A stretch of 64,000 nucleotides of DNA from an uncultured Gammaproteobacteria bacterium (GTDB taxonomy: Bacteria > Patescibacteriota > Patescibacteriia > Magasanikbacterales > UBA922): the NCBI GenBank assembly GCA_964597575.1, contig CAZQXB010000001.1, positions 466,111 to 530,110 of the forward strand, written 5' to 3'. The notes below the pieces were generated by a model that was not told the origin of the DNA, ran no database searches, and worked only from the letters and a program-made list of their open reading frames with translations. Made by a program: the position numbers and the translations under genes. Shown piece after piece: positions 9,385-57,125 of this stretch. Position 1 is the first letter of the stretch; the number at the start of each line of letters is the position of its first letter.

Positions 9385-11994
9385 TTGCCTGTTTTTCTCT
9401 TTATGCAAGATAAAATTATTATTCGTGGTGCGCGTGAGCATAACCTCAAAAACATCTCACTTGAAATGCCGCGCAACAAGATGATTGTTTTTACGGGGCT
9501 TTCTGGTTCAGGAAAGTCGAGTTTAGCGTTCGATACTATTTTTGCCGAAGGCCAACGCCGCTACATTGAAAGTCTGTCTTCCTACGCTCGCCAATTTTTG
9601 GGTGGCATGCAAAAACCCGATGTTGATGAAATTGAAGGGTTGTCTCCGGCTATTTCGATTGATCAGAAGGCGCATAGTTCAAACCCACGTTCAACGGTTG
9701 CAACCATTACGGAAATTTACGATTATCTTCGTGTTCTTTTTGCCCGCGTCGGTCAGCCGTACTGCCCTATGTGTGGTACCAAAATTGAGCGCATGGCTAC
9801 CGATCAAATGGTAGAAAATACCATTCGGAATGCGAAAAAATATGTTGTTTCGAATAAAGCCGAAGAAATTATTCTTTTTTCTCCGGTCGTACGTGGTCGA
9901 AAAGGGGAGTATTATCAAATGCTCTACGACTTATATAATTCAGGGTTTTTAGAAGTGCGCGTGGACGGAAAAATAAAAAGTTTGCGGACGCGTATTGTGT
10001 TATCGAAAAATAATCAGCATACGATTGAAGTGGTTGTCGATAAGCTTCCGGCGACGATGTTTAAAGCGGAAACGCTTAGTGAGGCTGATCGTCAGCGCGT
10101 CGCTGAAGCGATTGAACGTGCGGTGGATTTGTCGAACGGACTTTGTACGGTGAGGTACGGAGAAGGAAATGAAGCAACGTATAGTACCGAGTATAGTTGC
10201 CCGAATGACGGTTTTAGTTTTCCAGAAATTGAACCCCGGTTATTTAGTTTCAATAGTCCATATGGGCAGTGCAGTCGCTGTACTGGTTTAGGTACGGCAG
10301 AATTATTCAGTGAAGAAGTGTGCCCGAAATGTTTAGGCAAGCGCCTCAATGATAACGCTCTCTCGGTTAAGATTTTAGAAAAAAATATCCATGAGGTTAC
10401 GACCATGGATATTGCCGCAGCGAGAGCGTTCATTGTGCTTCTTGAGCAAGAAATGAATGCGCAGGATTTGGAAATTTCAGGGGCGGTTTTTCGCGAAGTG
10501 ACGAGTCGTCTGCAATTCATGCTCGATGTGGGTCTCGATTATTTGAGTTTAGATCGAAAAGCCGGAACGCTCTCGGGTGGTGAAGCCCAGCGTATTCGTT
10601 TAGCATCACAAGTAGGTACCCGCCTAGTTGGGGCACTTTATGTACTCGATGAACCAACGATTGGGCTGCATCAGCGCGATAATGAGCAGCTTGTTACCAC
10701 CCTCCGTAATTTATGTGATGTTGGAAATACGATTATTGTGGTTGAGCATGATGAAGATACGATTCTAACCAGTGATTGGATCGTGGATATTGGTCCGGGT
10801 GCCGGGAAGCATGGGGGAGACGTAGTCTATTCAGGACCTATGAGTAAATTGCTTAGCCCTGGAACCAAAAAGATGGAAACATTTGGATGTGAAGTTATTG
10901 GTGATGAGAAGAAATCGTTGACCGGAAAATATTTACGCGGAGAAGTTGCGATTGAAGTACCAGAAAAGCGCCGAAAAGTAGATGAATCCACTCCGAAATT
11001 AAAAATCAAAGGTGCTCGAGCCCATAACCTCAAAAACATTTCAGTTGAAGTTCCACTTCGACGGTTTGTGTCGCTGACCGGTGTATCTGGTTCTGGAAAA
11101 TCAACGGTGATGCACGATATTATTTATCGGACCGTTGCGAATAAGTTGAATCACGTGAATAAGAAAACAGGGGAATACGATACCATGATCGGTACCGAAT
11201 ACATTGATAAGGTCATTGTTATTGATCAGTCCCCGATTGGCCGTACCCCGCGTTCAAACCCAGCGACGTACACCAAAGCGTATGATACTATTCGTGAAAT
11301 CTTTGCGCTTACGACCGAAGCCCGTGTACGTGGGTATAAACCCGGTCGATTTAGTTTTAATACGCCAGGAGGTCGTTGTGAACACTGTGAAGGTCGAGGG
11401 CTCCTTGAAATCGAGATGCACTTCTTGCCGAGTGTTCAAATTGTGTGCGATGTGTGTAAGGGGAAACGGTTTGATCAGGAAACATTGCAGGTTCACTATA
11501 ATGGAAAGAGCATCTTTGATGTGTTAAACATGACGATTGAAGATGGAAGTGAGTTTTTCGCAGACATTCCAGGTATTTCGGATAAGCTTAAAGTGTTAAA
11601 AGAAGTCGGTTTGGGGTACCTCACACTCGGGCAATCGGCCACTACCCTCTCAGGGGGTGAGGCGCAGCGTATTAAGCTCTCGCGTGAATTGGCGAAACGG
11701 AACACGACAAAAACATTGTATTTGCTCGATGAGCCAACCACGGGTTTGCATTATGATGATGTCAAAAAATTGATTGAGGTTCTCCAGAAACTCGTTTCAC
11801 AAGGAAATACTGTCATGGTGATTGAGCACAATCTCGACCTGATTAAATGTGTGGACTGGATTATTGATATGGGTCCAGAGGGTGGGTCAAAGGGTGGGGA
11901 AGTTGTAACGACCGGAACTCCAGAGCAGGTGTCAAAGACAGGAAAAAGCTCAACCGGGCAGTATTTGCGACGTATGTTGGCAGAGAAAAAGTAA
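9385..11994 (+). CDS. uvrA: excinuclease ABC subunit A
   Basis: 869 aa with two ABC ATPase modules ([18 protein letters not shown]), two LSGGE signatures and zinc-finger CxxC pairs. N-terminus [28 protein letters not shown]. Confidence 0.95.
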
Positions 11995-11995
11995 G

Positions 11996-13321
11996 ATGAG
12001 ATACATGATGACGAATGTTGAACAACGTCTGATCGAACTTCCGGATGTTCCAGGGATCTATTTGTTTTACTCAAAAGAGAAGGAGCTTATTTACGTTGGT
12101 AAAGCCACATCTCTTAAAAGCCGGGTGCGAAGTTATTGGGCAGGGAAGAGAACGAGTCGGCCGATTGAGCAGATGATGCATCAGGTGGAAAATGTGTCTT
12201 GGGTGGAAACAGATTCTGCACTCGAAGCCGCAATTTTAGAATCCGTTCACATCAAAAAGTTTCAGCCAAAATATAATGTTGATGGAAAAGATGATAAGAG
12301 CTGGAATTATGTTTTGATTACGAAGGATACCTATCCGCGCATTGTGACGATGCGAGAACACGAGATTATTCTTCTTCCGGAAAAAGCTCCGAAAACAGAA
12401 AAGAAGTTCCGACCTTCAAAAAAGGTGATCGTTCGCTCCCGTCAGGATATTGCCTATGAATTTGGCCCGTATCCAGGGCTAAATACCAAAGAAGCCTTAA
12501 AAATTTTGCGTCGGATCTTTCATTTCTCGAATTGTACTCCAGGCCAAGGGCGACCCTGCTTATATCGGCAAATGGATCAGTGCTTGGGAGTGTGTACTGG
12601 GGAAATTACAGCCCTTGAGTATCGCACCAAAGTTATTCGACCGCTGGTGATGTTTTTGCGTGGAGAAAAGAAACGCTTGGTCACAAATCTTGAAAAAGCC
12701 ATGACGGCCGCAGCGCGAGTTGAAGATTTCGAAGAAGCGGCCCGACTTCGCGAACAGCTGAAAGCGCTTTATAGAATCCACGATGTGGCTTTGCTTAATA
12801 AAAGTTTTGTATCGGACGATGCGGAACCAGCGCAAGGTGTTGAGCGTATTGAGGGGTATGATATTTCAAATTTGGGCTCAACCGGAATTGTAGGAAGTAT
12901 GGTCGTGTTTACGAATGGCGTACCAGATAAAAGTCAGTACCGGAAGTTTGCGATGCACTCTGTAACCGGGCAAAGCGATGTTGATTCGCTGGAAGAAATG
13001 CTTCGTCGACGATTTCGCCATCCAGAGTGGAAGTTTCCAAGTATTCTTCTTATTGATGGGGGGAGACCTCAGGTAAATAAAGTCGTAGAGGTGATGAAGG
13101 ATCTTGGAATATCAATTCCAATTGTGGGTATTGCTAAAGGGCCAGACCGAAAACGAAATGATTTTACCTTTCCGAACGATATTAGTGAGCCTGGGAACGA
13201 GCATTTGCGTGATTTCGTGCATTATGTGAACGAACATCAAGAGCTCCTCATTCGAGTGCGTGATGAAGCGCATCGGTTTGCGATTAGCTACCAGCGCGTG
13301 AAGCGGGGAATGAGGAAGTAA
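11996..13321 (+). CDS. uvrC: excinuclease ABC subunit C, short form (GIY-YIG, UVR and RNase-H-like domains; no C-terminal HhH)
   Basis: GIY-YIG (GIYLFYSKEKELIYVGKA), UVR motif (FEEAARLREQLKAL) and the endonuclease V-like region. Only 441 aa. Starts 1 nt after the uvrA stop. Confidence 0.85.
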   Translation: MRYMMTNVEQRLIELPDVPGIYLFYSKEKELIYVGKATSLKSRVRSYWAGKRTSRPIEQMMHQVENVSWVETDSALEAAILESVHIKKFQPKYNVDGKDDKSWNYVLITKDTYPRIVTMREHEIILLPEKAPKTEKKFRPSKKVIVRSRQDIAYEFGPYPGLNTKEALKILRRIFHFSNCTPGQGRPCLYRQMDQCLGVCTGEITALEYRTKVIRPLVMFLRGEKKRLVTNLEKAMTAAARVEDFEEAARLREQLKALYRIHDVALLNKSFVSDDAEPAQGVERIEGYDISNLGSTGIVGSMVVFTNGVPDKSQYRKFAMHSVTGQSDVDSLEEMLRRRFRHPEWKFPSILLIDGGRPQVNKVVEVMKDLGISIPIVGIAKGPDRKRNDFTFPNDISEPGNEHLRDFVHYVNEHQELLIRVRDEAHRFAISYQRVKRGMRK

Positions 13322-13789: not shown

Positions 13790-13908
13790 GTGGATAAACT
13801 CCCTAGAAAAGTCATAAAAACCCTTGCTAATGTATAAAAGTGGTATATAATGGGTATAGGTGGGAGAAAGTGGGAAAAATGCTTGTCTTCCTACAAACAC
13901 ACCTACCT

Positions 13909-14340
13909 ATGTTTATCGGCGAATACCTCCACAGTCTCGACGACAAAGGACGCCTCTCGGTTCCGAAGAAATTCCGGACCGATTTGGCTCTTGGTGCCGT
14001 CGTTACCCGAGGGCTTGATCACTGTCTTTTCCTCTACACAAAAGAGGAGTGGCAGAAGCTCGCCGAAAAGTTGGCGAATCTTCCGTTTGCCCAGGCAAAC
14101 ACGCGTGCGTTTGCGCGCTTGATGCTTGCTGGAGCCATGGATGTGGACGTCGACAAACAAGGGCGCGTCATGTTACCCGAGTATCTTCGATCATTTGCGG
14201 ATCTTTCCAAAAATGTCGTTGTGGCAGGTTTGTACAACCGCCTTGAGCTTTGGGATGAAGCGGCCTGGAATGCCTATAAGGCAAAAACAGAAAGTGAAAC
14301 CGAGGCTATCGCCGAAGAGATGGGTAAACTTGGAGTATAA
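13909..14340 (+). CDS. mraZ: transcriptional regulator MraZ
   Basis: MFIGEYLHSLDDKGRLSVPKKFR matches the MraZ N-terminus. The upstream in-frame extension to 13840 is unlikely. Confidence 0.85.
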   Translation: MFIGEYLHSLDDKGRLSVPKKFRTDLALGAVVTRGLDHCLFLYTKEEWQKLAEKLANLPFAQANTRAFARLMLAGAMDVDVDKQGRVMLPEYLRSFADLSKNVVVAGLYNRLELWDEAAWNAYKAKTESETEAIAEEMGKLGV

Positions 14341-14350
14341 ACGACTGTCT

Positions 14351-15271
14351 ATGCGCCATGTTCCTGTTCTTCTTCATGAGGTCATTGAGGTCCTTCGTCC
14401 AGCTCCTGGACAAACGTTCGTCGATGGCACATTAGGTGACGCTGGCCATGCTGAAGCGATTTTAGATGCAACGGGCCCAAACGGAAAATATATTGGGTTT
14501 GATGCTGATCCTGAAGCGATTTTGCGTGCCAAGCGGTTCTTGGAGCCATTCAAAGAGCGCGTTGTGTATGTACGGGAAAATTTTTCTCGTATGTCCGAGA
14601 TGCTTGCGGCTGAAGGTGTGCAAACGGTGAATGGTGTATTGATCGACCTTGGTTGGTCAACGCCACAGTTTGCAGAACGAGGTCGCGGTTTCAGCTTTTT
14701 GAAGCCCGAGGAACCGCTCGACATGCGGTATTCTGGTGAGGCAGAAAAACAAAAGACATCGGCGAAAGATATGGTGAACTCCTTATCTGAGGAAGATCTC
14801 ATGAATATCTTTCGAGATTATGGCGATGAATCGCTCGCCCGCGAAATTGCTGCGGCGATTGTAGCAAAACGCGCCGAGAAGCCAATAGAAACAGTTGGAG
14901 ATTTGACCGAAGTCATTCTGCAGACGTACAGAAAAAAATTAAAAACAGACAAAGAAATCCCTTGGGTTGGAGGAATGCATCCGGCCACAAAAGTGTTTCA
15001 GGCGCTTCGGATCGCAGTAAATAATGAGTTTGGTGTTATAAAGCAGGTGTTGCCGCAGGCACTGAATGCCTTGGCTCCTGGCGGAAGGTTAGCTGTGATC
15101 ACGTTTCATTCGGGAGAAGACAGAATTGTGAAACATGAGTTCAAACGAGCCGAACAAAACGGGTTTACGCTTATCACCAAAAAACCGATTGTATGCAGTG
15201 AGGAAGAGGGGGAGGCAAATCCACCATCTCGCTCAGCAAAACTTCGGGTTATTGAAAAAACACTGGTATGA
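14351..15271 (+). CDS. rsmH: 16S rRNA (cytosine1402-N4)-methyltransferase RsmH
   Basis: MRHVPVLLHEVIEVL...DGTLGDAGHAEAIL. The long upstream extension (14126) overlaps mraZ and is rejected. Confidence 0.9.
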   Translation: MRHVPVLLHEVIEVLRPAPGQTFVDGTLGDAGHAEAILDATGPNGKYIGFDADPEAILRAKRFLEPFKERVVYVRENFSRMSEMLAAEGVQTVNGVLIDLGWSTPQFAERGRGFSFLKPEEPLDMRYSGEAEKQKTSAKDMVNSLSEEDLMNIFRDYGDESLAREIAAAIVAKRAEKPIETVGDLTEVILQTYRKKLKTDKEIPWVGGMHPATKVFQALRIAVNNEFGVIKQVLPQALNALAPGGRLAVITFHSGEDRIVKHEFKRAEQNGFTLITKKPIVCSEEEGEANPPSRSAKLRVIEKTLV

Positions 15272-15597
15272 ACGTAGGAAAAATCCGCGAACAAAAACAA
15301 CGTATGCGACAGTGGGTCCTTGGTACCTCCTGCCGAGTTATTTTGTTTATTGGGGTCGTTGGTTTAGGTGTTCTCTACGTGGTTCAAACGAGTGTTGTTT
15401 CAACAAAAGGATACGATATTGATAGTCTTCGTCGGGAAGTAACGCAACTCGAAAAAGAAGATCGGCGTATGCAGATTTCTATTGCCGAGTACCGTTCTAT
15501 TCAGCGAGTGGTGGAGCGAGTTGAAGGCCTTGGTATGGTGCCAGCGACTGATGTTGCATATGTGACGCCGACGAATAATACGGTTGCGAAAAGATAG
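15268..15597 (+). CDS. ftsL: FtsL-like cell-division protein (single TM plus coiled coil)
   Basis: Position immediately after rsmH with an ATGA overlap; 109 aa with one TM and a leucine-zipper-like region. Confidence 0.6.
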   Translation: MNVGKIREQKQRMRQWVLGTSCRVILFIGVVGLGVLYVVQTSVVSTKGYDIDSLRREVTQLEKEDRRMQISIAEYRSIQRVVERVEGLGMVPATDVAYVTPTNNTVAKR

Positions 15598-15709: not shown

Positions 15710-16069
15710 ATGATCCTCGTTCTCCAACGTATTTTGCTCGAAGCACTTCTTCACGTGCTCATCTTTCCATTTTGGTGGTATACCAAAGGAATGCTATTTG
15801 CGGCGAAGCGATGTTTTGAGATTTTCCGTTACGGAAATGAATTTTTAGTTCCTGCTCTGTGGTGGCGAAATATTTTCGTGCCCATGTTTGGTCAAGTTGA
15901 TTGGCAAGGGCGGCTGGTGAGCTTTGGTATTCGACTTGCGAATGGGGTGGCGAGAACACTCGCACTTTTGGTGTGGCTCTTTTTTGCAACACTTCTTTTT
16001 GTGATCTGGCTCGCGCTTCCACTTGGTGTGGTGGTTCTTTTCGGGCTTACTTTATTTCCGTCCCCGTAA
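15710..16069 (+). CDS. hypothetical membrane protein
   Basis: 119 aa with 3-4 TM helices. Confidence 0.5.
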   Translation: MILVLQRILLEALLHVLIFPFWWYTKGMLFAAKRCFEIFRYGNEFLVPALWWRNIFVPMFGQVDWQGRLVSFGIRLANGVARTLALLVWLFFATLLFVIWLALPLGVVVLFGLTLFPSP

Positions 16070-16072: not shown

Positions 16073-18802
16073 ATGAAATACGCCTCACTCCCAAGTGTTT
16101 CTGTGTTCTCCTGTTCGACCTGCCGAGGGAAAGGCGTTATTGGAGTTCGTACCTGTGGCACATGTCGGGGTATGGCGCGCGGAGTAGCTTTTGGTGATTC
16201 TTGGCTTTATCTCAGAACCGCGCTCACTTCTTACGATATCTTACTTAAACGTGCTCGCTCCACCCTCGACCATGGTGAGGCACTTTTTGCAACACTTCTG
16301 TCGCTCGTGGGAGCTTTTGGCACTATTTATTTTCTCTCTCAAGGTGAGTTGTTTCTAAAAGCGTTGACCATTGATTTTTGGCTTACCGGCTCACCAGCAG
16401 TACGGTTTAGTTTTGGAGTAACCCTACTCGGTTTTATGTACCTCGTGTATGTGCATACGCGAGAAAAAAAACGCACCGTGCCGCCACAGGCGCTTCCTTC
16501 AGAGACGCATCAGGTATCTGACTGGCATGAAATTCATCGCATGCCGCGAAAAAAGAAGATCTCCGTTATTGCTTCTTGCCAAGATGAAACGATCCGAGTC
16601 CTTGAACATGCGTTTGATGTTGCGTATACCCTCCGTTCATCTTCAATTTTGCCTGAGCATCTTTTTTTAGCACTCCTTAAAAGTGCCGATATTCAAAATG
16701 TTTTTTTGCGTCTGGCACTTCCACCGGGTTTGCTTGAAGCTGCGGTAAAGAAAAATATTATAAAAACCGCTCCGCAAAAAGAGGAGCCGACCCTTTCCCC
16801 TGAAGCAGAAAGTATTTTATTCCACGCCTATCACGAAGCAGCCAATTCACATGCTCAAACCGTTCGCCCTACACATGTGCTCCTTACCACTATTCGCATG
16901 TCAGCACATGTACAAGAAGCACTTTATGACGTGGGAATCGATGCTGAAACCGTGGAGCATGTCGTTGCCTGGGTGAAGCTTCGGGAAAATTTACGTGAAG
17001 CCTATGTCACAAGCCGACACGCGGCGATGCATGTGAGTAAGCACGGGCTTGATCGGGCAATGACGGCCGTAGCCACTCCGTACCTCGCGAGTGTGAGTAC
17101 TGACATTACCCTTCTTGCAAAATATGGTCGTCTGCACCCGACCGTTCAACGCGATCGAGAAATTGCTGAAGTATTTCGCTTACTTGAAAGCGGTAAGGGC
17201 GGTGTTGTGCTGGTAGGAGATCACGGGACCGGCAAAATGAGTATTATCCATGGGTTGGCCGAGCGTATTATGACGGATGATTGCCCCAAAGAGCTGAAAG
17301 AAAAACGATTGCTTCTTCTGTCAACAACAGCCCTGCTTTCTGGGGCCACGCTCCCAGAAGCTGAGGCACGGCTAGCGCGTGTCGCTCGCGAAGCAAGTCG
17401 CGCAAAAAATGTTGTGCTTTGTATTAATAATATCCATGATCTCTCTGCTCCGTCTGGAGATGGGGAGGGGCTCGATATTTCTGAGGCTATCAGTGAATGG
17501 GTGAGTAACGGTGCTCTTCGGGTTGTTGCGACGGCAACACCAGACGGGTTCAATCGGCATCTTGTGCGCACCCGCATAGGGTCAGCTATGGGTGTGGTTC
17601 ACATAAAAGAACCTGAACCCCTTCAAGCTATTGAAATGCTTGAGGCTCATGTGGGTTCCATTGAATATCGCACAAAAACATTTATTTCGTATAGCGCGGT
17701 AAAGGCCGCGGTGAGTTCAGCGATAAAATTTCTTCATGATGAACCGTTGCCGCTTTCTGCCCTCACGATTTTAGAAGAAGCCGCAACGCTTGCGAAACAT
17801 ACCCGTGGTGAGCATGTGTTTGTGAGTGGAGAAGATGTCGCATCTGTAGTTGCTGAAAAAACAGGTGTACCTGCAGCTACCGTTTCTTCCCATGAGGCCG
17901 AGCTGCTTCTTCATCTTGAGGAAGAGTTGCACCAAACTGTTATTGGGCAGGAAGAGGCAGTAACGGCCATTTCTGAAGCACTGAGACGGGCTCGAACAGC
18001 CTTAACCAGTGGGAAGCGCCCACTTGCTACGTTTTTATTTCTTGGGCCAACCGGGGTCGGAAAAACCGAACTCGTAAAAACAATTGCCCGGGTGTATTTT
18101 GGCGGGGAAGAACGGATGATCCGGCTTGATATGAGTGAGTTTCAAGATACGAGTGCGGTGTACCGCCTTATTGGAGAACCCGGAAAACCTGGAACTGGAC
18201 TTTTAACGGAAGCCGTGCGGCAACACCCATTTAGTTTAGTTCTTCTTGATGAGTTAGAAAAAGCCGATAAGGGGGTAATGAATTTATTTTTGCAGGTATT
18301 TGATGATGGGCGCTTAACCGATAGTGTGGGGCGGGTGATTGATTTCCGAAATACCATGATCGTGGCAACTTCAAATGCGGGAACAGCATTTGCCCAGGCA
18401 GGTTTTGCAAAAGGGGACACAGCGAGTGTGATTCGCACTGCTTTGGTGCATGGAGAATTAGCTACGGTGTATCGACCCGAGTTTTTAAATCGATTTGATG
18501 GTATTATTTTGTTTCGACCCCTCACTAAAGATGACGTGAGAAGAATTGCCAAACTGATGCTTCGAGATGTAGAGGCATCACTTGATGAGCGAGGGGTAAC
18601 GCTTAAAATTGAAGATGCGGCACTCGACACCTTGGCTGCGCTTGGGTATGATCCGGAATTTGGCGCCCGGCCTATGAGACGGGCAATTCAAGATACGATT
18701 GAAAATGCGATTGCAGAAAAAGTGTTGAAAAATGAGCTTTCTCGACGAGATACCTTAGTGGTCGGAGAAAACCTGCACGTTCAAATAGAAAAAGCCCTAT
18801 AA
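16073..18802 (+). CDS. membrane-anchored ClpA/ClpB-family AAA+ protein with an N-terminal DnaJ-type zinc-finger pair and a degenerate first ATPase domain
   Basis: N-terminus CSTCRGKG...CGTCRGMA (CxxCxGxG twice), then two TM helices and Clp_N repeats. D1 has a degenerate Walker A (GDHGTGKMS) and no DE in the Walker B position. D2 has intact GPTGVGKTE / LLDELEKA and a sensor region. Confidence 0.75.
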   Translation: MKYASLPSVSVFSCSTCRGKGVIGVRTCGTCRGMARGVAFGDSWLYLRTALTSYDILLKRARSTLDHGEALFATLLSLVGAFGTIYFLSQGELFLKALTIDFWLTGSPAVRFSFGVTLLGFMYLVYVHTREKKRTVPPQALPSETHQVSDWHEIHRMPRKKKISVIASCQDETIRVLEHAFDVAYTLRSSSILPEHLFLALLKSADIQNVFLRLALPPGLLEAAVKKNIIKTAPQKEEPTLSPEAESILFHAYHEAANSHAQTVRPTHVLLTTIRMSAHVQEALYDVGIDAETVEHVVAWVKLRENLREAYVTSRHAAMHVSKHGLDRAMTAVATPYLASVSTDITLLAKYGRLHPTVQRDREIAEVFRLLESGKGGVVLVGDHGTGKMSIIHGLAERIMTDDCPKELKEKRLLLLSTTALLSGATLPEAEARLARVAREASRAKNVVLCINNIHDLSAPSGDGEGLDISEAISEWVSNGALRVVATATPDGFNRHLVRTRIGSAMGVVHIKEPEPLQAIEMLEAHVGSIEYRTKTFISYSAVKAAVSSAIKFLHDEPLPLSALTILEEAATLAKHTRGEHVFVSGEDVASVVAEKTGVPAATVSSHEAELLLHLEEELHQTVIGQEEAVTAISEALRRARTALTSGKRPLATFLFLGPTGVGKTELVKTIARVYFGGEERMIRLDMSEFQDTSAVYRLIGEPGKPGTGLLTEAVRQHPFSLVLLDELEKADKGVMNLFLQVFDDGRLTDSVGRVIDFRNTMIVATSNAGTAFAQAGFAKGDTASVIRTALVHGELATVYRPEFLNRFDGIILFRPLTKDDVRRIAKLMLRDVEASLDERGVTLKIEDAALDTLAALGYDPEFGARPMRRAIQDTIENAIAEKVLKNELSRRDTLVVGENLHVQIEKAL

Positions 18803-18924
18803 AACAAAACCATCCGCTTCTCCCACTTTTATACCCATGACCTTTATGGATGTAAAAGTGGTGTGCGGATGGACTTTGTTGTAGTGCCAAACGAACACCT
18901 CTACGGCTCAAGTGCATCGTGTTG

Positions 18925-19098
18925 TTACATGTGCACGAGCAGCGTTCGAACTGCTACGATCACGATGCTGATCGTTGCGAATACGATCGCGGGACCCAGG
19001 ATTCCGGGTCGAGTGTTGTTCCTGTACTCGAACGTCTCGAGTTCGTAGTCCGTGGTGGGTTTGGGTTGGGAGTTGTGGTGTTTGTTTTCACCTGCCAT
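18925..19098 (-). CDS. small GC-rich membrane protein (57 aa from the second ATG), probably leaderless
   Basis: C-terminal TM helix (ILGPAIVFATISIVIVAV). A consensus promoter at 19107-19135 places the transcription start at about the ATG at 19098. The track's ATG at 19116 lies inside the promoter spacer. Confidence 0.45.
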   Translation of the reverse strand: MAGENKHHNSQPKPTTDYELETFEYRNNTRPGILGPAIVFATISIVIVAVRTLLVHM

Positions 19099-19106
19099 TG
19101 TGAAAA

Positions 19107-19135
19107 AAGATATCATAAAAAACCGTTTTTGTCAA
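19107..19135 (-). promoter_or_regulatory. sigma70-type promoter TTGACA-N17-TATCTT
   Basis: Minus-strand cTTGACAAAAacggttttttatgaTATCTT; resembles the promoters at 40899, 48412 and 50629. Confidence 0.5.
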
Positions 19136-19186
19136 GAGCTTACACATATAATTTGTCTAAAATAAGGTAAAAAGTAAACATTTTCT

Positions 19187-19657
19187 ATGGCTACAAAATT
19201 AAAGTTTTCTCCCTTTCAAATTGCTGTCCTGCTTGTGTTTCTGGCAGCACTCGCCGTGCTTAAGATTCTTGAATTTCACTTCCCAAAAGCCATTATTGAG
19301 GTAGATGGTCAGCGTTTGGAGGTACTTGTGGCTAAAACCCAAAAACATGCTTTTCGGGGTTTGGGGCGTCGGGATTCCTTGGAACCATACGACGGTATGC
19401 TTTTCGTCTTTCCAGAGCTCCGCCGTCCAGGTATAGTGATGCGAGATATGCGTTTCCCTATTGACATAATTTGGCTAAAGAATGGGGTTATTGTGGATAT
19501 TGCCCCGAATGTCCCGCTTGAGCCAGGAGTAAAAGAAGAGGATTTACGGGTCTATTTCCCTCGAGATACAGCCAATGCCGTACTTGAGATGCCGGCGGGC
19601 GAAGCTATGAAGCGGGGCTTTGCTATAGGAGACACCCTCCAACTTGTAGATAACTAG
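19187..19657 (+). CDS. DUF192 domain protein
   Basis: DGMLFVFP...MRDMRFPIDIIWL pattern typical of DUF192/COG1430; N-terminal TM. Confidence 0.7.
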   Translation: MATKLKFSPFQIAVLLVFLAALAVLKILEFHFPKAIIEVDGQRLEVLVAKTQKHAFRGLGRRDSLEPYDGMLFVFPELRRPGIVMRDMRFPIDIIWLKNGVIVDIAPNVPLEPGVKEEDLRVYFPRDTANAVLEMPAGEAMKRGFAIGDTLQLVDN

Positions 19658-22595: not shown

Positions 22596-23672
22596 ATGAA
22601 TGTCTGTATTATCAACCATCTATTTCCTCCGTATCAAGGCGGCGGCGCTGAAACCGTAGCCCGAGGAGAGGCAATCGCGCGCGAAGAAAAAGGCGACCGT
22701 GTGGTTGTGATTACCATGAAAGCCTTCGGAGATAGTTCGGCCAAAGGAAAAGAGATTATCGGTAATATGACGATTTATCGACTTTCCTCCTTCCCAGGTC
22801 TTTTTTACGGACATCTTGGAAAGTATCAATATTTTCACCGCCGGATTTTTTTTCTTACACGTTTTTTTCCCCTGATTACGCTAGGAAAAGTGTGGATTAT
22901 TTTACGAAAAGAAAAGATAGAAGAGGTGCGTACTCATAATGTAGTTGGAATTTCTTTTACTTTAGGCCGACTACTTACCTGGCTTCACATTCCTTTTATT
23001 CATCGGCTCCATGATATTCAGTTAGTAACCCCAAGTGGCGTTCGAGAAGTTGCACGTACGAAGGATACGCCATTTGAACGGGTATATAGTGCTCTTATGC
23101 GGTGGTGCTATGGGAACCCGAAAGAGGTTGTTTCTCCGTCACGATTTTTACGAGAGTGGTACCGTGAACGAGGATTTTTCAAACAAAGTAGTTTTATTAC
23201 GGAAGAAAATCCACCTATTGTAGTGGTACCTCACGGCGGAAAACGAGTGCGTGGGCGGGTTCTTTTTGTGGGGTCTCTTGAGACACACAAGGGAGTCGAT
23301 GTCCTTATGCGGGCTTGGAATACGTTGCCGAGTGGATGCGGATTTACTCTTCATATTGCGGGCCGTGGAGCGCGTCAAGAAAGTTTGTGTGAATGGGCAA
23401 GTTCAAAACGGAACGTGAGTTTGCTCGGATATCTTTCTGGTGCAGCCCTTCAAAAAGAGTTTGAGGAAGCCTCTGTATTTGTCTTTCCTTCTCTTTGTAT
23501 TGAAAATAGCCCTACTGCTATTCGCGAGGCGCTTGCTTATGGTTTACCGGTCGTTGCGGTAGATACTGGAGGGGTTCGAGAGCTTTTGCATATTGGTTCT
23601 GGGTCACTGTTAGTACCACCTAATGATGCCCATGCTATTGGCCGCTCACTTGTTCAGATTCTTCGGGCGTAG
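22596..23672 (+). CDS. glycosyltransferase family 4 (GT-B)
   Basis: MNVCIINHLFPPYQGGGAE N-terminus; C-terminal LFVGSLETHKGVD...E(x7)E motif region. Confidence 0.8.
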   Translation: MNVCIINHLFPPYQGGGAETVARGEAIAREEKGDRVVVITMKAFGDSSAKGKEIIGNMTIYRLSSFPGLFYGHLGKYQYFHRRIFFLTRFFPLITLGKVWIILRKEKIEEVRTHNVVGISFTLGRLLTWLHIPFIHRLHDIQLVTPSGVREVARTKDTPFERVYSALMRWCYGNPKEVVSPSRFLREWYRERGFFKQSSFITEENPPIVVVPHGGKRVRGRVLFVGSLETHKGVDVLMRAWNTLPSGCGFTLHIAGRGARQESLCEWASSKRNVSLLGYLSGAALQKEFEEASVFVFPSLCIENSPTAIREALAYGLPVVAVDTGGVRELLHIGSGSLLVPPNDAHAIGRSLVQILRA

Positions 23673-25710
23673 AGGGGAGCGTGTATTCGTATATCCACGC
23701 TCGGCCAGGTCCAATATCAAAGAAGTGTTCTGCTTCTTTTTTTGCTGCATCTCGAAGTTCTGCTGCGGGGTACCAATAATTCGTATGGATAAGATATGCT
23801 TTTTTTACTCCAGCAAAACGCATCGCTTCTTCCATCCACTGTCGTTTTGGCTCCTCGTACACCATTTTTCGAAACCACTGATAGAGAGGGCCGCCTGTTG
23901 GAATCGAATAGATGTAGTGTTCGCCTCCGTCAGCTCCCTGGTGGTAGGTCTTGAAAGAGAATTCTCGAAGAGCTGCTGATGCAACGGTTTGGTTTGTAAG
24001 TACAATGTAGTCAGTTGAAGTACCGTTTCTTTGCTGAATAAAATGAACCGCCTCAATATCTGCTTTGCGAACAGCATACCCAGTGTGTTTTGAAATCTGA
24101 TCGCGAGTAGGGTAGGTAAAATACCAAGAGATCATGAGGAGGAACGCGCTGGCTACAGACCAAACGATCTGCCATGTTCGGTTTTGAAGTCTCGGTAAGG
24201 CTTGTTTTTCGAGTATGTCGAGAAAAAATGGGAAAAAAAGCACAAGGGCAACCGCGAGGAGTCGGGAGGCGTAGGCCCCGCGTTCGTAGTTAATGACTCC
24301 TGGAATCGAGAAAGAGGTGAGGATAATGGCAGACAAACAAATATGTGCCCCAATCAGAAAGAGTACCCACATGTTTTTTTGTTTGCGAGAGAAAAAAAAC
24401 GTAATGACGATAATGATATAGGGGAGAAGAAAACGGTAGGCGTAAAGAATTTGCCATACGAGTGGTTTGCCTTCGTACAGCCACCAGTAGGGTGGAGCAA
24501 GAAGAAGGTTAATAAAATCAGGATGCTGAATAATAGAGGTGAATGTTGGCGAAGCGCCGCCAAGGTATCCGTATGCAATGAGAAGCATCGGTGTAACAAG
24601 AAGGAGAGCGAAAGAGGTGCCGAGCGCTAAGATTCTTTTTTGTTTTTCAAAAAGAATATATGTGCTGAATGCAAAAAACCCTGGGATACCGATAAAGGGG
24701 TGGATACTTGTGGCAGCAATAAGTAGTAAAGCGAGAGGAATGTAGGGCTTTTTCTCATTTTGACTCAAGAATAAAAGAAGGCTTGCAAAGAAAACGAAAC
24801 AGAGCGCAAGATTGTTCGGTGTGGTTTGGATAAAGAAACTGAGTGGCCAGAGAGCAAGAAGGGGAAGAAGGGCAGGGGATTTCTTTTGCAGAAGATAAAG
24901 TGTTGGAAGAAAAACAGCAACGATGAGGGGGAGAAATATCTGATGAATGAGAGAGAGGGGGAGGTGCGTAAATAGGTGAATCGGCACAATAAGCATGTAT
25001 TCCCCAATATAGTAAGGCGTCTTTGGAAAGAGTTCGCCAAATTCAAGAATCCACTTCATGGCTGCTTCGTGAACAAAGGGGTCAAAACCAAATCCATAGG
25101 CAAAAATAAGAGCAGCAACGGAAAGTATTCTTGCGAAGAAAACAGAAAGCAGAATCCCTGCATATTTTCTGTGTGCTCGGAACAAAGTGAAAAGAGTGGT
25201 GAGCGTGACCACGAATGCGACAATAAAAAAACGAGGACCAAAGAGCGTCCACGGGGAAATAAGGGTGTCATCAAATCGGCGGGAAAAAATGATTGCCAGA
25301 AGCGCTCCTTCCCCCGCAAGTGCCGGAAGAAGTGGCCAGAGGTTACTCCATGTTGTTTCGTCCCAAAATTTTAGACCACTTTTTTTCTTTGCTGGGATAC
25401 ACAGGGTAAGGAAGGCGGTGATGACAACTGTCGTGGTCAGGGTTATTTTTGAAAAGCCGTTCGCGTAATAGAGAAGGGTCAGAATACTTGAGACCGCCAG
25501 AAGATAAAAACCGCTTCCCAGAAGCATTTGGGAAAATCGAGGGGCTTCTTTAAAAAGCCACTGCCCTACCCGGCCCCCAACAAGAGCGAAAAAGCCAATC
25601 GTAAGAGGAAGTGCTACAACAACCGGGGTCGGATAAAAAAGATTTACGAGAAGTCCGATTGTCGCAAGAGAGAGGAGGATGGTATACTTGTAGAAGTTTG
25701 TCATAGACAT
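23635..25710 (-). CDS. large polytopic membrane protein (about 690 aa, at least 14 TM plus a C-terminal soluble domain); putative GT-C-type glycosyltransferase or polymerase
   Basis: Extreme hydrophobicity and a conserved DPFVHEAAMKW loop motif; start taken at MSMTNFY (25710). No specific family recognised. Confidence 0.5.
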   Translation of the reverse strand: MSMTNFYKYTILLSLATIGLLVNLFYPTPVVVALPLTIGFFALVGGRVGQWLFKEAPRFSQMLLGSGFYLLAVSSILTLLYYANGFSKITLTTTVVITAFLTLCIPAKKKSGLKFWDETTWSNLWPLLPALAGEGALLAIIFSRRFDDTLISPWTLFGPRFFIVAFVVTLTTLFTLFRAHRKYAGILLSVFFARILSVAALIFAYGFGFDPFVHEAAMKWILEFGELFPKTPYYIGEYMLIVPIHLFTHLPLSLIHQIFLPLIVAVFLPTLYLLQKKSPALLPLLALWPLSFFIQTTPNNLALCFVFFASLLLFLSQNEKKPYIPLALLLIAATSIHPFIGIPGFFAFSTYILFEKQKRILALGTSFALLLVTPMLLIAYGYLGGASPTFTSIIQHPDFINLLLAPPYWWLYEGKPLVWQILYAYRFLLPYIIIVITFFFSRKQKNMWVLFLIGAHICLSAIILTSFSIPGVINYERGAYASRLLAVALVLFFPFFLDILEKQALPRLQNRTWQIVWSVASAFLLMISWYFTYPTRDQISKHTGYAVRKADIEAVHFIQQRNGTSTDYIVLTNQTVASAALREFSFKTYHQGADGGEHYIYSIPTGGPLYQWFRKMVYEEPKRQWMEEAMRFAGVKKAYLIHTNYWYPAAELRDAAKKEAEHFFDIGPGRAWIYEYTLPSTPEESEQVSGQ

Positions 25711-25728
25711 CCCTATTCTAACAGACCT

Positions 25729-27960
25729 ATGCGGTGGCAGACAATCCGCACCTTGCTGTACGTTCTTCCTTTCCTTTCCATCGTCGGTTTTTTCTGGCGT
25801 GATTTGGGTCAAGCACCGGCCGTGGTAAGTATCATTTCTTTCATTCTTTTTGTTGGGGTTGTTGGTCGACAGTGGGAACATATTTTTGAGCGAGTCTACG
25901 GACTCCGAGAACGGGACATGTTTCGGAGTATTTTGGCTTGGGGATTTGTAGTTCTCATGCTCGGGTTTGGTGTGGGCGCAGCTGTTATTTTTGGCTCTCT
26001 CAAGCCCGGAATCATGCCCTCCATTGCCCTTAGTATTGCAGTGCTTAGTACTGTGGTGTACACCCTCACAACTCGTACTCTTTCGTCAGTGTCACCACCA
26101 GTATCCATTCGACCCGGAAGTGAGCTTTCTGTCTATCGCGTTCCAAAAATCTGGCTTCTCGTGAGTATTGTCCTCGGTTTGGCTATAGTATGGTTTATGG
26201 TTGACGGGAGGAGTGAAGCGTCTTTTTCCACTCCTTGGCAGATACTCCATTCATACATACCGATTTTGGGTTTTCTTCTCTTTGTTGTTCTTGGTGCCCT
26301 CGTCACCTCAAAAACAAAAATTAGCCGGGTGCTTTTTGGAATTGTTTTCGCCTCGTTTGTACTTCATGCATACGTACCGCTCTCTCATGTGCTGCCTTGG
26401 GGTGGGGATATTTGGCGGCATATGGCGACCGAATCAATTCTCATTGAGGAGAATTCGTATGGGCCAGTTCTTTTTGGTGCTGAAGTTACGTTTAAAGAAG
26501 TGCGTGGAATACTTGTGCCTGAAGTTTTTTTTGCTACTCACAAATTTACCTACGGGCAGTTTTGGGGTCTTTCCGTTTTTCTTCATCGTTTCTTAGGTCT
26601 TGATCTTATTTCCCTCGGCATCTGGCTTGGTCCGCTTCTTTGGAGCTTGCTTGTGCCTTTGCTTTTGTTTCGTATCGGGGCAGTTCTTTTTGGATCTTGG
26701 CGACACGCGCTTCTCCTTGCTGCACTTTCTCTCCTTCCGTTTTCTCTGCAGGCGGTGGGCGGGTTTACGCTTCCGATAACACTCGGATACATTTCATTTT
26801 TGTACGGCCTTCTTTTCTGGGTTACGCGCCAGCGGGACAAGTATACTCCACAAACGGTACTCGCAATCTGTTGGGGTGTGCTTATGACGTGCGGATATGT
26901 TGTTCCAGTCATCTTATGGTGGACCATGGTTTTTGGAACGCTCCTTGTTTCTTTTCTGTTTGCGCCGACAAAATATATTCTCAGTAAAATAGGAAAAGGT
27001 TTCCTTCTTGGTCTTGGGGTTGCGTTTTCTTTGTGTCTTTTTCCACTCCTCGAAATTGTTTTAGGTTTATCCGCATTTCCTACGCAGGTTGCCTGGCGCG
27101 ATCTTATATTCCGAATCGTGGGGGAGTGGAGTGGATTCTACTATGCTGATCTTATTCGTCCTCACGACATCCTTTCTGGAAATGTGTTATTTAATCATAC
27201 ACCTCTCGAAGCCTTTGTAGATTCACCTTTTACTCGAGTGCGATGGCATGTTGTTTTTCTTTCCTTAGGGTTTCTTCTTCTTTCGCTCATTGGTTTTTGG
27301 CGAGCGACGGCTCTTCGTGTTAAGCAATGGATACCACTTTTGGTTCTGGGGCTGACCATGGTTGGAGGGTATACGATCAGCTGGTATGGTCTTTTGGGTG
27401 AGCATAGTTTTGTTCGTCGATTTGACCCGATGCTTGCCATACTTCTCCTTTGTTTTGCCATTGCCGGAGGCATAGTTGTTTTTCGAAATATGAATCCGTC
27501 TTTAAAAACTCTGCTTATTCCCATGAGCATTTTGTTTTTGGCTTTTTCGACCGTTACTATTTGGATGAGTGGCCCAGATACCCGTGTTCTCAGTGTTTCC
27601 GCAGTCGAGGCTGCTTTTGAAGTAGCGGAAACAAACCCTTCGTGTGTGCTGTCCGACACATGGGAGCTCTTACCACTTGAGTATGCGCTTCAAGGGAGTT
27701 TGATTGGGGGAGGGTTTCCGATTACGCACTTATTTGGGCAGTCAGAACGCACCGAGCTTTATGCGGAATTCGTAAGTACAAGTACACCGAGCATGGTCTA
27801 CGAAAAAGTGAGGCAGGTGTTACAGCAAGAGCACTGCGCAATTTTTGTGCCAAAAGAAAAAATGCGACCTGAGGCCATTGCTGATGTGGCGAGAAATTTG
27901 GGTCAGCCACAAGAAGTGGGGTCGTATTTACTGTGGCTTGCGCCACCGAGGCAGCTGTAG
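25729..27960 (+). CDS. large polytopic membrane protein (about 744 aa); paralog-like partner of the divergent upstream gene
   Basis: Start MRWQTIRTLLYVLPFL at 25729; many TM helices; GDIWRHMATE loop motif analogous to the neighbouring gene's. Confidence 0.5.
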   Translation: MRWQTIRTLLYVLPFLSIVGFFWRDLGQAPAVVSIISFILFVGVVGRQWEHIFERVYGLRERDMFRSILAWGFVVLMLGFGVGAAVIFGSLKPGIMPSIALSIAVLSTVVYTLTTRTLSSVSPPVSIRPGSELSVYRVPKIWLLVSIVLGLAIVWFMVDGRSEASFSTPWQILHSYIPILGFLLFVVLGALVTSKTKISRVLFGIVFASFVLHAYVPLSHVLPWGGDIWRHMATESILIEENSYGPVLFGAEVTFKEVRGILVPEVFFATHKFTYGQFWGLSVFLHRFLGLDLISLGIWLGPLLWSLLVPLLLFRIGAVLFGSWRHALLLAALSLLPFSLQAVGGFTLPITLGYISFLYGLLFWVTRQRDKYTPQTVLAICWGVLMTCGYVVPVILWWTMVFGTLLVSFLFAPTKYILSKIGKGFLLGLGVAFSLCLFPLLEIVLGLSAFPTQVAWRDLIFRIVGEWSGFYYADLIRPHDILSGNVLFNHTPLEAFVDSPFTRVRWHVVFLSLGFLLLSLIGFWRATALRVKQWIPLLVLGLTMVGGYTISWYGLLGEHSFVRRFDPMLAILLLCFAIAGGIVVFRNMNPSLKTLLIPMSILFLAFSTVTIWMSGPDTRVLSVSAVEAAFEVAETNPSCVLSDTWELLPLEYALQGSLIGGGFPITHLFGQSERTELYAEFVSTSTPSMVYEKVRQVLQQEHCAIFVPKEKMRPEAIADVARNLGQPQEVGSYLLWLAPPRQL

Positions 27961-52828: not shown

Positions 52829-53050
52829 ATTCTAAATAAAAAGTTGAGGAAGATCGGGGAGTGTGATAGGCTTTTAGGGAAGGTGGTGAGTGTAATTTTT
52901 TTGTGTATGCCCTTCGGTGAAGGTTTCAAATTCAATTTTTTTAAACGAAAAGACGAAGGGGAATTACGAGCCCAGGTCGAATCAGCCGAGGAACGTTTAG
53001 ATGTTTCGCCGAAAGAAAAGATTGTACCCCCTAAGCATCAGGAGGATTTA

Positions 53051-56000
53051 ATGAATCTACCTTTTAATGATCTGAAGGAACGTTTTGGGGCTCGGTACGA
53101 TATGTACCTCCGTCTTTTGCGTGAGCAAAAACAAATGGAAAGAGTGGGGAATGAAAATGGTATGCAAATAAATAATGATGAGATATTGGAAATGAAAAAG
53201 TGGCTGTCTGCTCTGAACTCATTAGACGAGTATATTGCTAAATATGCAGAGGGTGAAGAAGACACGCTCTATGAAGAACAGCTAACCGTTTTTGAAGATT
53301 TGCGTAAATTTCTCGAGACAGGGAAAAAAGATGGGTACATAAAGCTCCCAACAGGAACCGGAAAGACAGTGCTCTTTTCTGAATTCGTCGAAGCTTTAGG
53401 GTTAAAGACCCTCATAGTTACGCCGAAAAAATTGCTGGTCAGACAAACCGAAAAAGCATTCCACGAATTTGCTGAAGATATTGATGTTGGAAAAATTTAC
53501 TCAAATGCAAAACAATACGGGAGGGCGGTTACTATTACCACCTACGATTCCCTAGTAGCTGGGTTACGAAATGGAACTATCCATGCTGAGGATTACGAAT
53601 GTCTTATTTTGGACGAAGTACACGAATCATTAAGCGATGCTCGTGCGAATGCTGTTGATCAGTTTAAGGGGAAGGTGAGAATTGGTTTTACCGCTACCCC
53701 AGAATTTTCCGATAAGAAAAAAGTAAGTCAACTGTTGGAGCATGAAATTCATCGCATGGAAATTCGTGAAGCGGTTAAAGATGGGCTTCTTTCTCCCGTC
53801 ACTTGTATTGTTGCTCGCACTGAGGTTGATCTAGATTCTGTTCCTCTTACAGCTTCTGGTGAGTATAGTGAGGAAGAGTTGAAACTGGCTGTAAATATTG
53901 CTGGGCGCAATCAGGTCGCTATTGAATTTTACCTCAAAAATACCCCTAATGAATTAGCTGTAGTATATTGCGTTGGGGTTGAGCATGCAAAACTCATGGC
54001 AGACAAATTTTATGAAGCAGGAGTGCCTGCTACCTACATTAGTGGCGCCATGGATGATGAAAAACAACAACAAATTTTAGACGGTTATGCGAGTGGTAAA
54101 TACAAGGTTCTCTGTAATGCTGATATTCTTGTTGCTGGGTTTAACGAACCAAAAGCCAGTGTGTGTTTGAACCTCAGACCAACCCGATCTCGCGTGGTTG
54201 CCGAGCAGCGAGCCGGGCGTGTTCTTCGGGTTGATAAAAATAATTCAGATAAGCACGCACTTGTTGTTGATTTTCTCGATAAATCAGGTGAGCTCCCGGT
54301 TATTTTTCCTCAGATCATTGATACCAATCAAATTGTTCCAAAGAAGAAAAGAAGGGAGGGTGAAGAAGGTGATGATAGGGAGGTAGTAGATTATATACCA
54401 ATGCGCCCACCAATTATCGATGTGGAAGGTCTGGATATGGTTACGGATTACGAGGAGGTGTTAAAGATTGTGCGGGAACGGGAAAGGGTTGATAAAAAAG
54501 ATAATTTTCTTAGTTTAGAAGAACTAAAGACACAGGTTCTAAGTGAGGGCATTGTAGACGGAAAGCAGTACGTAAAGGTGTATAAAGAGCACCCGGGTTG
54601 GCCATCCACTCCGGCATATACCTATGGCGAAAAATGGCCGGGATGGAAAATATTTTTGAATAAAGAAGCCGTAGAATTTTTGTCTCTTGATGAATTGCAA
54701 AAGCAGGTTTTGGCGGCTGATGTTCAAGACGAAGTGGATTATAAAAAAATAAAGAAAGATCATAAAGATTGGCCATATGACCCCGCTTATTTTTATAAAG
54801 GCGAATGGCAAAATTGGAGAGAATTTTTAAAGAAAAATAATAGATTCTTGTCTTATGATGCAATGCGTCTGCAGGTAAAAGAAAAAGGCGTTTCTGATTG
54901 GGGGCAGTATCAAAAAGTGTATAAAAATCACCCTGGCTGGCCATCGAATCCGTATGCAACATATAGAGATGAGTGGAATGGTTATCCAGAATTTTTTGGT
55001 AAAGAAGTAGTCGAGTTTTTTTTATTTGAGAAAGCAAGAGAAGTCGTGCGTTCAGCAAAGATAAAAAACAATAAGGAATATAAAAAAGAATATAAAAAAT
55101 ACCCAGGTCTGCCGGCTGTTCCCAGTGAAATTTATAAAGATCAATGGATAAGCTGGCCTGAATTTTTAGGTACCGAAGTGGCTGATCTTTCCTATACAGA
55201 CTTGCGTGAGCAGGTTCGTTCGGCGGGAATTAAAACAGGGGCTGATTATGTGGCAGTATACAAAAATCACCCTGGCTGGCCATCCACACCTGCTTCTACC
55301 TACGGTGAACAATGGCCAGGTTGGATCGAGTTTTTAGGAAAGGAGAGCGTTTCACTTCTTCCTATGGAAGAAGTGAAACTTGCTGTTCGAAGTTTGTTGG
55401 TGGATACGAAAGAAAAATATACTGCCGTCTATAAGAATCATAAGGGCTGGCCATCGAATCCTAGTTCATGCTATAAAGATCAATGGATAAGCTGGCCTGA
55501 ATTTTTAGGTACAGAAGATAGATTTCTATCTTATGAAGAACTACAAGCTCAAGTAAAAGAGAGGGGGGTAAAATCAAGTCCGCAATATAAAAAGGAATCT
55601 AAGAGGCAAAAAAATTGGCCTTCCGACCCGCAAAGTTTTTATGATGAAAGATGGATGGGTTGGGATTCTTTCTTTGAAAGAAGTGATCGATTCCTTTCAT
55701 ATGTTGACTTGCAGGCTCAAGTAAAAGCCGCGGGTATTACAGATAATAAAGGCTATAGTGCAGTATATAAAAATCACCCAGGCTGGCCATCGAATCCTAA
55801 CCATATTTACAAAAATCAATGGAAGGGTTGGTCAGAATTTTTTGGTAAAGAAGTGGCTGAATTTCTTACTCTTAGTAAGCTTCAGGATGAGGTTCGGGCC
55901 GCGGGTATTACAGATAATAAAGGCTATAGTGCAGTATACAAAAATCACCCTGGCTGGCCATCGAATCCCCCAGTCTTGTACGAGGATGTGTGGCAGGGAT

Positions 56001-56434: not shown

Positions 56435-56448
56435 GTAGAAAATTTTAA

Positions 56449-56485: not shown

Positions 56486-56498
56486 TTTTTGTATATTT

Positions 56499-57098: not shown

Positions 57099-57125
57099 AG
57101 AACCTTAGTCAAAGATGAAGAAATT

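Follow-up and report, generated by a model that had tools for sequence, protein, structure and literature searches.

Organization and family of a membrane-anchored Clp/Hsp100-like protein

In this study, we analysed a stretch of 64,000 nucleotides (contig CAZQXB010000001.1 of assembly GCA_964597575.1, positions 466,111 to 530,110; called the window below and numbered from its first letter). It contains an intact open reading frame (ORF) for a Clp/Hsp100-like protein of 909 amino acids (aa), and directly upstream, on the same strand, the gene of a small membrane protein. An earlier note, made from the letters of the DNA, had proposed for the large protein an order of Cys motifs, two transmembrane (TM) helices, Clp_N, and a first and a second AAA+ module (D1 and D2). 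Pfam matches, hydropathy and an AlphaFold2 (AF2) model locate all of these where they had been placed, with the Cys motifs as Cys4 zinc knuckles at the N-terminal end, and the motifs are conserved family-wide. Three things were overlooked in that note: the loss of the pore-loop aromatics, the small membrane partner gene, and the division and envelope context. The features of the gene pair are as follows (KD, Kyte-Doolittle hydropathy).

15710..16069, + strand: small membrane protein gene, conserved partner; 119 aa, two TM helices, stop 3 nt ahead of the Clp-like start
16073..18802 including the stop, + strand: Clp/Hsp100-like ORF; 909 aa, ATG start, intact
16112..16171, + strand: zinc-knuckle pair, residues 14-33, C14STCRGKG21 and C28GTCRG33; predicted single Cys4 site
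16280..16336, + strand: TM helix 1, residues 70-88; KD 1.96; AF2 helix 53-90
16397..16453, + strand: TM helix 2, residues 109-127; KD 1.63; AF2 helix 108-131
16586..17032, + strand: Clp_N-type N-domain, residues ~172-320, from the ClpC alignment; eight helices in the AF2 model
17045..17086, + strand: linker motif between N-domain and D1, GLDRAMTAVATPYL, residues 325-338; near-invariant and family-specific
17108..17872, + strand: D1 AAA+ module, residues ~346-600; predicted to be catalytically degenerate
17873..18799, + strand: D2 AAA+ module and D2-small domain, residues 601-909

The Clp-like ORF is a real gene under selection and belongs to a widespread family. In a full-length search, about 41 proteins with a length of 870-927 aa were 37-62% identical to the window protein, and the named ones are almost all labelled Patescibacteria, Magasanikbacteria or Parcubacteria. 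The earlier note had proposed a search for the same fusion in other genomes, and it is indeed found there: a profile of the N-terminal part (345 residues), run against 1.84 billion representatives of clusters at 50% identity, matched at least 193 proteins at E<=1e-30, most of them of ~900 aa and aligned from profile position 1-12 onward, and the peptide AMTA[VI]ATPxL occurs in 231 genomes when one genome per GTDB species is searched. The best 80 of these 231 genomes are mostly Magasanikbacteria or 'Patescibacteria group'. The synteny counts given below refer to 87 loci, and the motif counts to 82 full-length members from the fetched loci, aligned to the family hidden Markov model. A decaying pseudogene was considered as an explanation of the ORF and was ruled out by the conservation of the family motifs.

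Judged by its sequences, the family appears to be an undescribed branch of the class-1 Clp/Hsp100 proteins, found here, among lineage-labelled records, almost only in Patescibacteria. Literature searches on Clp, Hsp100, membrane-anchored AAA and division and cell wall (dcw) topics in Patescibacteria or the candidate phyla radiation gave no description of it. Many records with a Patescibacteria-type gene cluster and the same gene order (L009, L017, L027 and ~30 more loci) are titled 'uncultured Gammaproteobacteria bacterium'. This title is probably a default or mistaken assembly label and thus a labelling artefact.

The features expected of a class-1 Clp/Hsp100 protein, namely an N-domain, two AAA+ modules, a D2-small domain and a ClpB/ClpC-like fold, are all present; aromatic residues of the pore loops are lacking in D1 as well as in D2. 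In a sequence search against the PDB, residues 172-598 and 568-887 align to Staphylococcus aureus ClpC, which is the best match with 407 bits, and nearly as well to ClpB (397 bits for Thermus thermophilus ClpB). Foldseek, run with the AF2 model, likewise placed ClpC and ClpB on top (E 1e-56 to 1e-43). The NCBIfam models were matched far below their cut-offs, with 498 bits against 1232 for ClpB (TIGR03346), 432 against 993 for ClpA (TIGR02639), 398 against 885 for ClpV (TssH), 393 against 1900 for ClpG and 374 against 1900 for ClpK. The earlier remark that the architecture was not recognised as a described Clp family is borne out, the protein falling below all ClpA/B/C/V/G model cut-offs.

At the extreme N-terminus, the zinc knuckles are predicted to form one zinc site inside a small beta-rich domain (residues ~12-47). 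In the AF2 model, which was built from 33 relatives and has a mean predicted local distance difference test score (pLDDT) of 85 and a predicted template modelling score (pTM) of 0.71, this module consists of beta hairpins (pLDDT ~89). All four Cys are kept in 76 members, none in five and some in one, and the knuckle Gly are kept in 75/82 (G21) and 67/82. This conservation is not due to chance. The top Pfam match of the N-terminus is DnaJ_CXXCXGXG (residues 13-33; 13.7-19.5 bits against a gathering cut-off of 32.7). When 13 relatives were scanned, the same model was matched in eight and Anti-TRAP in six, all sub-threshold; together with BSD2_CRD these are the only Pfam resemblances of the module, each below threshold. 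UvrA, encoded elsewhere in the window (9385-11994), reaches 20.6 bits on the DnaJ_CXXCXGXG model, which is also sub-threshold and above the score of the Clp-like protein itself. Weak matches to that model are therefore unspecific, and the resemblance is that of a generic zinc knuckle. A ClpX-type zinc-finger model was not among the Pfam matches listed (the best 25 of 30 at E<=1 for the full protein; E<=10 for the N-terminus alone). Of the DnaJ-type zinc finger that had been claimed, the CxxCxGxG motif and its conserved Cys thus hold, but the Pfam match is sub-threshold and one zinc site is predicted, not two.

The public gene call of this same protein (P0001) has 876 aa and begins at Met34, so that the zinc-knuckle pair is left out (window 16073-16171). 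That the true start is at 16073 is shown by residues 1-33, which are conserved in relatives, and by the distance of 3 nt to the upstream gene.

Both TM helices are modelled with a pLDDT of ~87-92, and the TM1 region has a KD of >=1.6 in 80/82 members. The outer loop between them is short (20 residues) and carries an invariant Trp (Trp103). Ten Lys or Arg residues lie ahead of TM1, one in the loop and ten past TM2, a distribution that fits an N-in/C-in topology, in which zinc module and ATPase body both lie on the cytoplasmic side. The N-domain follows. Residues 172-300 align with the N-domain of ClpC (ClpC residues 9-140); the Pfam Clp_N match of the window protein is sub-threshold (repeat at 180-227; 16.2 bits against a cut-off of 20.7), and Clp_N was matched in 6/13 relatives with E values down to 8e-8. 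Between N-domain and D1, the 25-residue stretch that includes GLDRAMTAVATPYL has a mean conservation of 0.83, with 14 of its 25 columns at >=90%, and AF2 confidence is low over residues 323-332, part of this stretch. No known Clp function explains the linker motif. The linker and the D2 large domain (mean conservation 0.82) are the top-conserved regions of the protein.

Catalytic motifs and pore loops of the two AAA+ rings

D1 had been called dead on account of a GDHGTGKM Walker A and a Walker B without DE, and this holds across the 82 members, in which the module is degenerate. The Walker A of the window protein reads G382DHGTGKM389. Family-wide, G-x-x-G-x-G-K persists as the backbone (K in 78 members), and the Thr or Ser that normally comes next is replaced by Met in 52, Lys in 8, Arg in 7 and Val in 5, a few distant members having kept GK[TS]. 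The Walker B is VLCINN (448-453), with INN where DE is expected; at the first acidic position the family has Asn in 34 members, Lys in 18, His in 12 and Asp in 9, and at the second Asn in 76 of 82. The site of the Arg finger, ARGEL in ClpC, reads SNGAL (478-482) in this protein and [S/P/G]-G-[R/K/N/Q]-F throughout the family. The Pfam scan gave a weak AAA_lid_9 match at residues 518-578. The acidic residues of Walker B and the Arg finger are thus gone, and most members have lost the Thr of Walker A too, so that D1 should be unable to hydrolyse ATP; from these motifs, we regard it as a pseudo-ATPase.

D2 was described as intact in the earlier note, and every catalytic motif is indeed found in 82/82 members: Walker A (GPTGVGKT, 658-665), the DE of Walker B (LVLLDE, 722-727), the sensor-1 Asn (N768), the Arg finger (R807, in RPEFLNRFD) and the sensor-2 GAR (864-866). 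Pfam matches cover AAA_2 at residues 649-809 (E 4e-45) and ClpB_D2-small at 817-896 (E 4e-25). With all catalytic motifs retained, D2 would be the sole motor of the protein. The idea of a pseudo-ATPase regulator, which had also been raised, can consequently be kept for D1 but not for the whole protein, as D2 is catalytically complete.

Both pore loops have lost their aromatic residues. The D1 loop of the window protein is LLSGATLPEAEA (421-432), without Tyr; at the position of KYRGEFE in Clp proteins, it reads AGTTVSGAQERL. The family has AG-T-T-[V/I/P]-S-G-A-Q-E-R-L in place of AGxKYRGEFEERL, with an aromatic residue in 0/82 members. The D2 loop, IGEPGKPGTGLLT (700-712), carries no aromatic residue either. 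Its family version, I-G-Q-P-G-Q-Q-G-T-G-I-L-T-E, is rich in Gln, Gly and Pro, has no Ar-Phi pair and is four residues shorter than the ClpC or GYVG type (GAPPGYVGxxxGGxLTE); any aromatic within this loop was seen in 2/82 members. The same search also gave 42 Clp proteins outside the family; they served as a control, and 31 of them have a KYRGE-type D1 loop and 40 a GYVG-type D2 loop. The pore-loop and Walker B counts are alignment-based, since plain regular expressions for GYVG and hhhhDE gave false positives; within the family, what such expressions pick up as GYVG or as a second DE lies in a D1 helix or in the zinc/TM part of the protein.

The absence of aromatic pore-loop residues from both rings argues against a classical threading disaggregase. 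The M-domain is absent as well: about 60 residues of ClpC (~405-464) have no counterpart, the D1 and D2 alignments abut without insertion, and no long coiled coil is seen in the AF2 model between residues 516 and 620. The Pfam scan of the Clp-like protein gave no match to UVR. The membrane-tethered disaggregase or unfoldase that had been suggested for this gene can thus not be upheld in that form, as the pore-loop Tyr are missing in both rings and an M-domain, through which DnaK or MecA could couple, is lacking. The Clp-like protein is probably not a conventional protein-unfolding machine. The claim that a ClpP-docking loop is lacking agrees with the alignment: at this position the family has [AQEK]-G-[VTIA] in a loop shorter than that of ClpC, and a conserved [LIV]-G-[FL] or IGL tripeptide is absent.

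The small membrane partner and the gene neighbourhood

The small protein and the Clp-like gene form a two-gene module. A homologue of the small gene lies directly upstream of the Clp-like gene and on the same strand at 86 of the 87 loci, and at the remaining one the Clp-like gene begins 37 nt from the contig end. From the stop of the small gene to the start of the Clp-like gene the median distance is 7 nt, with 66 of 81 junctions within 30 nt. When the test was reversed and the search started from the small protein, the Clp-like gene was found directly downstream for 3/3 homologues. The partner is also retained at L004-L006, although the zinc finger of the Clp-like protein is lost there.

Homologues of the partner are 117-127 aa long and have two TM helices. 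The hydrophobic segments lie at ~1-22 and 83-115, and the basic segment between them (eight Lys or Arg) holds the invariant residues. This conserved part, FPxWWY ... NIFVPMFGQxDWQGRLVSF, is predicted to be cytoplasmic. The AF2 model is all-helical (pLDDT 91), and Foldseek found nothing significant for it in the PDB; the best hit (E=2) is to helical hairpins of the ESCRT-III/PspA type and is no evidence of relatedness. No match was obtained in Pfam, NCBIfam or PADLOC. The partner family comprises at least 1881 clusters, in which every named member is called 'hypothetical'.

The usual gene order around the module is (uvrC)-mraZ-rsmH-ftsL-[small]-[Clp-like]-GT4-DUF192-rplU, with recR-ybaB-dnaB on the opposite strand (GT4, a glycosyltransferase of the WecA/MraY-like type). 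In the window, the following neighbours were found.

13840..15597, + strand: mraZ, rsmH and ftsL, upstream of the pair, with Pfam and NCBIfam matches
19187..19657, + strand: DUF192 gene, downstream of the Clp-like gene

Upstream of the pair, rsmH is present at 74 loci, mraZ at 71 and an ftsL-like gene at 76; downstream, GT4 is found at 70 and DUF192 at 69. The relatives' GT4 gene was tested for being MraY; it scores higher with WecA (104 bits) than with MraY (60 bits), both below cut-off, so that only 'WecA/MraY-like' is warranted. At one locus (L089:7148-8366), a 117-aa gene comes next after the Clp-like gene, and after it a gene of the FtsW/RodA/SpoVE family; the two take the place of GT4-DUF192. 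This FtsW/RodA gene again points to septal and envelope synthesis. Further downstream, the window holds a glycan-synthesis cluster with glycosyltransferase and sugar-nucleotide genes. The neighbourhood of the module is thus a division and envelope context. In the distant members L002-L004, the mraZ block is not adjacent.

In this window, no GT4 gene or remnant was found in the gap ahead of DUF192 (18803-19186). The 385-nt interval between the Clp-like gene and DUF192 has a minus-strand ORF of 63 aa (18925..19116) with a hydrophobic tail, and in L002 and L003 a small minus-strand gene occupies the matching position. UvrC (window 11996-13321) has 441 aa, compared with 506 aa in the L005 relative; it contains GIY-YIG, UVR and RNase H-like domains, and Pfam listed no C-terminal helix-hairpin-helix region. 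Two ORFs of 748 and 810 aa without Pfam match (23635-25881, minus strand, and 25528-27960, plus strand) overlap by ~350 nt on opposite strands, and the overlapping part of at least one of them may be spurious; L001 has a ~700-aa gene without Pfam match at the same place. At 52844-61786, a 1196-aa helicase with an INT_rpt unit lies near a 704-aa coupling protein of the TrwB/TraG/VirD4 type, and this region is possibly a mobile or conjugative element. RNA scans of the whole 64-kb window (ARAGORN, and Rfam at gathering thresholds) gave no tRNA and no Rfam family.

Proposed function and comparison with known systems

We propose, and hold about evenly balanced between right and wrong, that the Clp-like protein is a ClpP-independent, D2-driven and membrane-tethered remodeller that acts together with its small partner on clients of the envelope or of division. 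In such a machine, 12 TM helices would hold a hexamer beneath the membrane, with the zinc domain and the N-domain facing the cytoplasmic membrane surface. D1 would serve as a non-catalytic assembly or structural ring, like NSF-D2 or p97-D1, and ATP turnover in D2 would be converted into conformational remodelling of a membrane-associated client, that is its assembly, disassembly or release, with no processive threading. Surfaces for recognition and coupling might be provided by the zinc and N-domains, by the invariant motif of the linker and by the cytoplasmic segment of the partner. This conserved segment of the partner could act as adaptor, anchor or client, and the client would likely come from the cell-envelope or division machinery.

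Several observations speak against this proposal. That the Clp-like protein forms hexamers, binds zinc, hydrolyses ATP and acts on such clients is in each case inferred. At the Tyr position of D1, the family has Val, Ile or Leu, so some grip on a substrate is possible. In the window protein, A776-G-F778 aligns with the AGF by which S. aureus ClpC binds ClpP. Finally, the synteny with dcw and envelope genes is strongest in one clade, the Magasanikbacteria, and is lost in L004, and might therefore reflect inheritance rather than function.

The aliphatic residue at the D1 Tyr position would suit a genuine threading machine with unconventional pore loops, for example a membrane-protein extractase or a membrane-proximal disaggregase, similar to FtsH or Msp1 without a protease. 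The two-TM anchor at the N-terminus, which sets the face formed by N-domain and D1 against the membrane as in FtsH, the fully competent D2 motor and the preserved Hsp100 double-ring fold are in line with such an activity. Aromatic pore loops are, however, conserved in Clp/HSP100 proteins and critical for their processive unfolding (PMC5425593), and here they are missing from all D1 loops and nearly all D2 loops, the latter being shortened and rich in Gln, Gly and Pro, while D1 cannot hydrolyse ATP. Threading thus appears unlikely, although it is the most probable of the alternatives. The AGF tripeptide, in turn, would fit a divergent ClpC or ClpA orthologue of reduced genomes that feeds ClpP, as would the database names ClpC or ClpA and the best PDB match. 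But the tripeptide is not conserved in the family, and relatives as close as 57-58% identity lack it and read QKGE and EKGE. Together with the shorter loop, the scores far below the ClpA and ClpB cut-offs, the lack of UVR and M-domain and the loss of pore-loop Tyr in both rings, this makes a ClpP-feeding orthologue highly improbable.

Loss of catalysis in D1 and of both pore loops could also be taken as a sign that the protein is a full pseudoenzyme, i.e. a catalytically irrelevant scaffold, or that the gene is in decay. We consider this very improbable too, in view of a D2 whose catalytic motifs are invariant and which is among the most conserved parts of the protein, and of an ORF that is intact in hundreds of genomes. 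A role in anti-phage defence or as a component of a mobile element is suggested by PADLOC matches to DolB and PDC-M37B over the D2 core, but these are confined to the generic AAA core (residues 604-770), the small partner is unmatched, and the neighbourhood is a stable housekeeping one (mraZ, rsmH, ftsL, rplU, recR, dnaB) across the 87 loci. Such a role has next to no probability.

Going beyond the remodeller proposed above, one may speculate that the pair is a division or envelope membrane machine specific to Patescibacteria, in which a single active, non-threading ring assembles or recycles a membrane-bound assembly, possibly one of the small partner itself. We think this rather doubtful, and a likeness of such a machine to Vps4 with ESCRT-III, or to Torsin with LAP1, would be just as tentative an analogy. 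If it were true, the pair would provide the first case in bacteria of an Hsp100 derivative that remodels membranes without threading. Hsp100/Clp proteins are the textbook threading motors, and this family keeps their double-ring scaffold and one competent ATPase ring. The pore-loop Tyr, catalysis in the other ring, the M-domain and docking to ClpP have been given up, and new are the membrane anchor, the zinc module and an obligate small membrane partner. Thus, if our reading is right, the Hsp100 scaffold would have been repurposed in bacteria for a non-threading job close to the membrane. To our knowledge, the eukaryotic Torsins are the only comparable repurposing. In addition, the family marks a conserved and uncharacterised two-gene module, located in the division and envelope cluster of uncultivated ultra-small bacteria, whose cell biology is poorly understood. 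Public gene calls omit the zinc finger in at least this genome, and the names ClpC and ClpA are misleading.

With ClpC and ClpB, the family shares Clp_N, the two AAA+ modules and the D2-small domain, and its D2 is ~42-48% identical to theirs. Unlike them, it has an N-terminal zinc domain and two TM helices, and lacks the M-domain, UVR, a conserved ClpP loop, the D1 Walker B, the D1 Arg finger and the pore-loop Tyr. ClpE and ClpX are likewise Clp ATPases that begin with a Cys4 zinc module, and that of ClpX binds adaptors and substrates. Both of these proteins are soluble, dock to ClpP and keep the pore-loop Tyr, and ClpE has no Clp_N domain. The zinc motif of our family is of the DnaJ-like CxxCxGxG form, unlike that of ClpX. 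The Cys-rich zinc finger of DnaJ (PF00684) in turn has four such motifs and two zinc centres, compared with two motifs and a predicted single site here.

In FtsH, two N-terminal TM helices hold a hexameric AAA+ ring under the membrane, and small membrane partners, HflK/C, are associated with it. The two TM helices and the small membrane partner of the Clp-like protein resemble this arrangement. It differs from FtsH in its Hsp100-type double ring, in having only ~18 residues outside the membrane and in the absence of an aromatic pore loop; moreover, Peptidase_M41 was not matched in the Pfam scan, so the protein is not an FtsH. Non-hydrolysing assembly rings are known from other two-ring AAA+ proteins, namely NSF-D2 and p97/Cdc48-D1, and the plant proteins SMAX1/D53 are Hsp100-like pseudo-unfoldases. 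As in these, one ring of the Clp-like protein appears to have kept the fold and not the catalysis, and SMAX1 was in fact a weak match to D2 in the sequence search of the structure database (E 3e-12). In contrast to NSF, p97 and SMAX1, the degenerate ring is here the D1 of an Hsp100 scaffold, the active ring is without pore aromatics, and a membrane anchor is present.

The closest mechanistic precedent may be provided by the Torsins. These are Clp/Hsp100-related AAA+ proteins that associate with the membrane via an N-terminal hydrophobic segment and have no aromatic pore loops; they are not functional without partner proteins bound to the membrane, and are not thought to act by threading (PMC5425593). 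The family described here has in common with them a Clp-related AAA+ module, a membrane tether, pore loops without aromatics and a membrane partner, which suggests a functional analogy and no specific homology. The parallel is incomplete, because D2 has an Arg finger of its own (R807). Torsins form a single ring whose Arg finger is supplied by the cofactor, whereas the Clp-like protein would combine a self-sufficient D2 with an additional, dead D1 ring.

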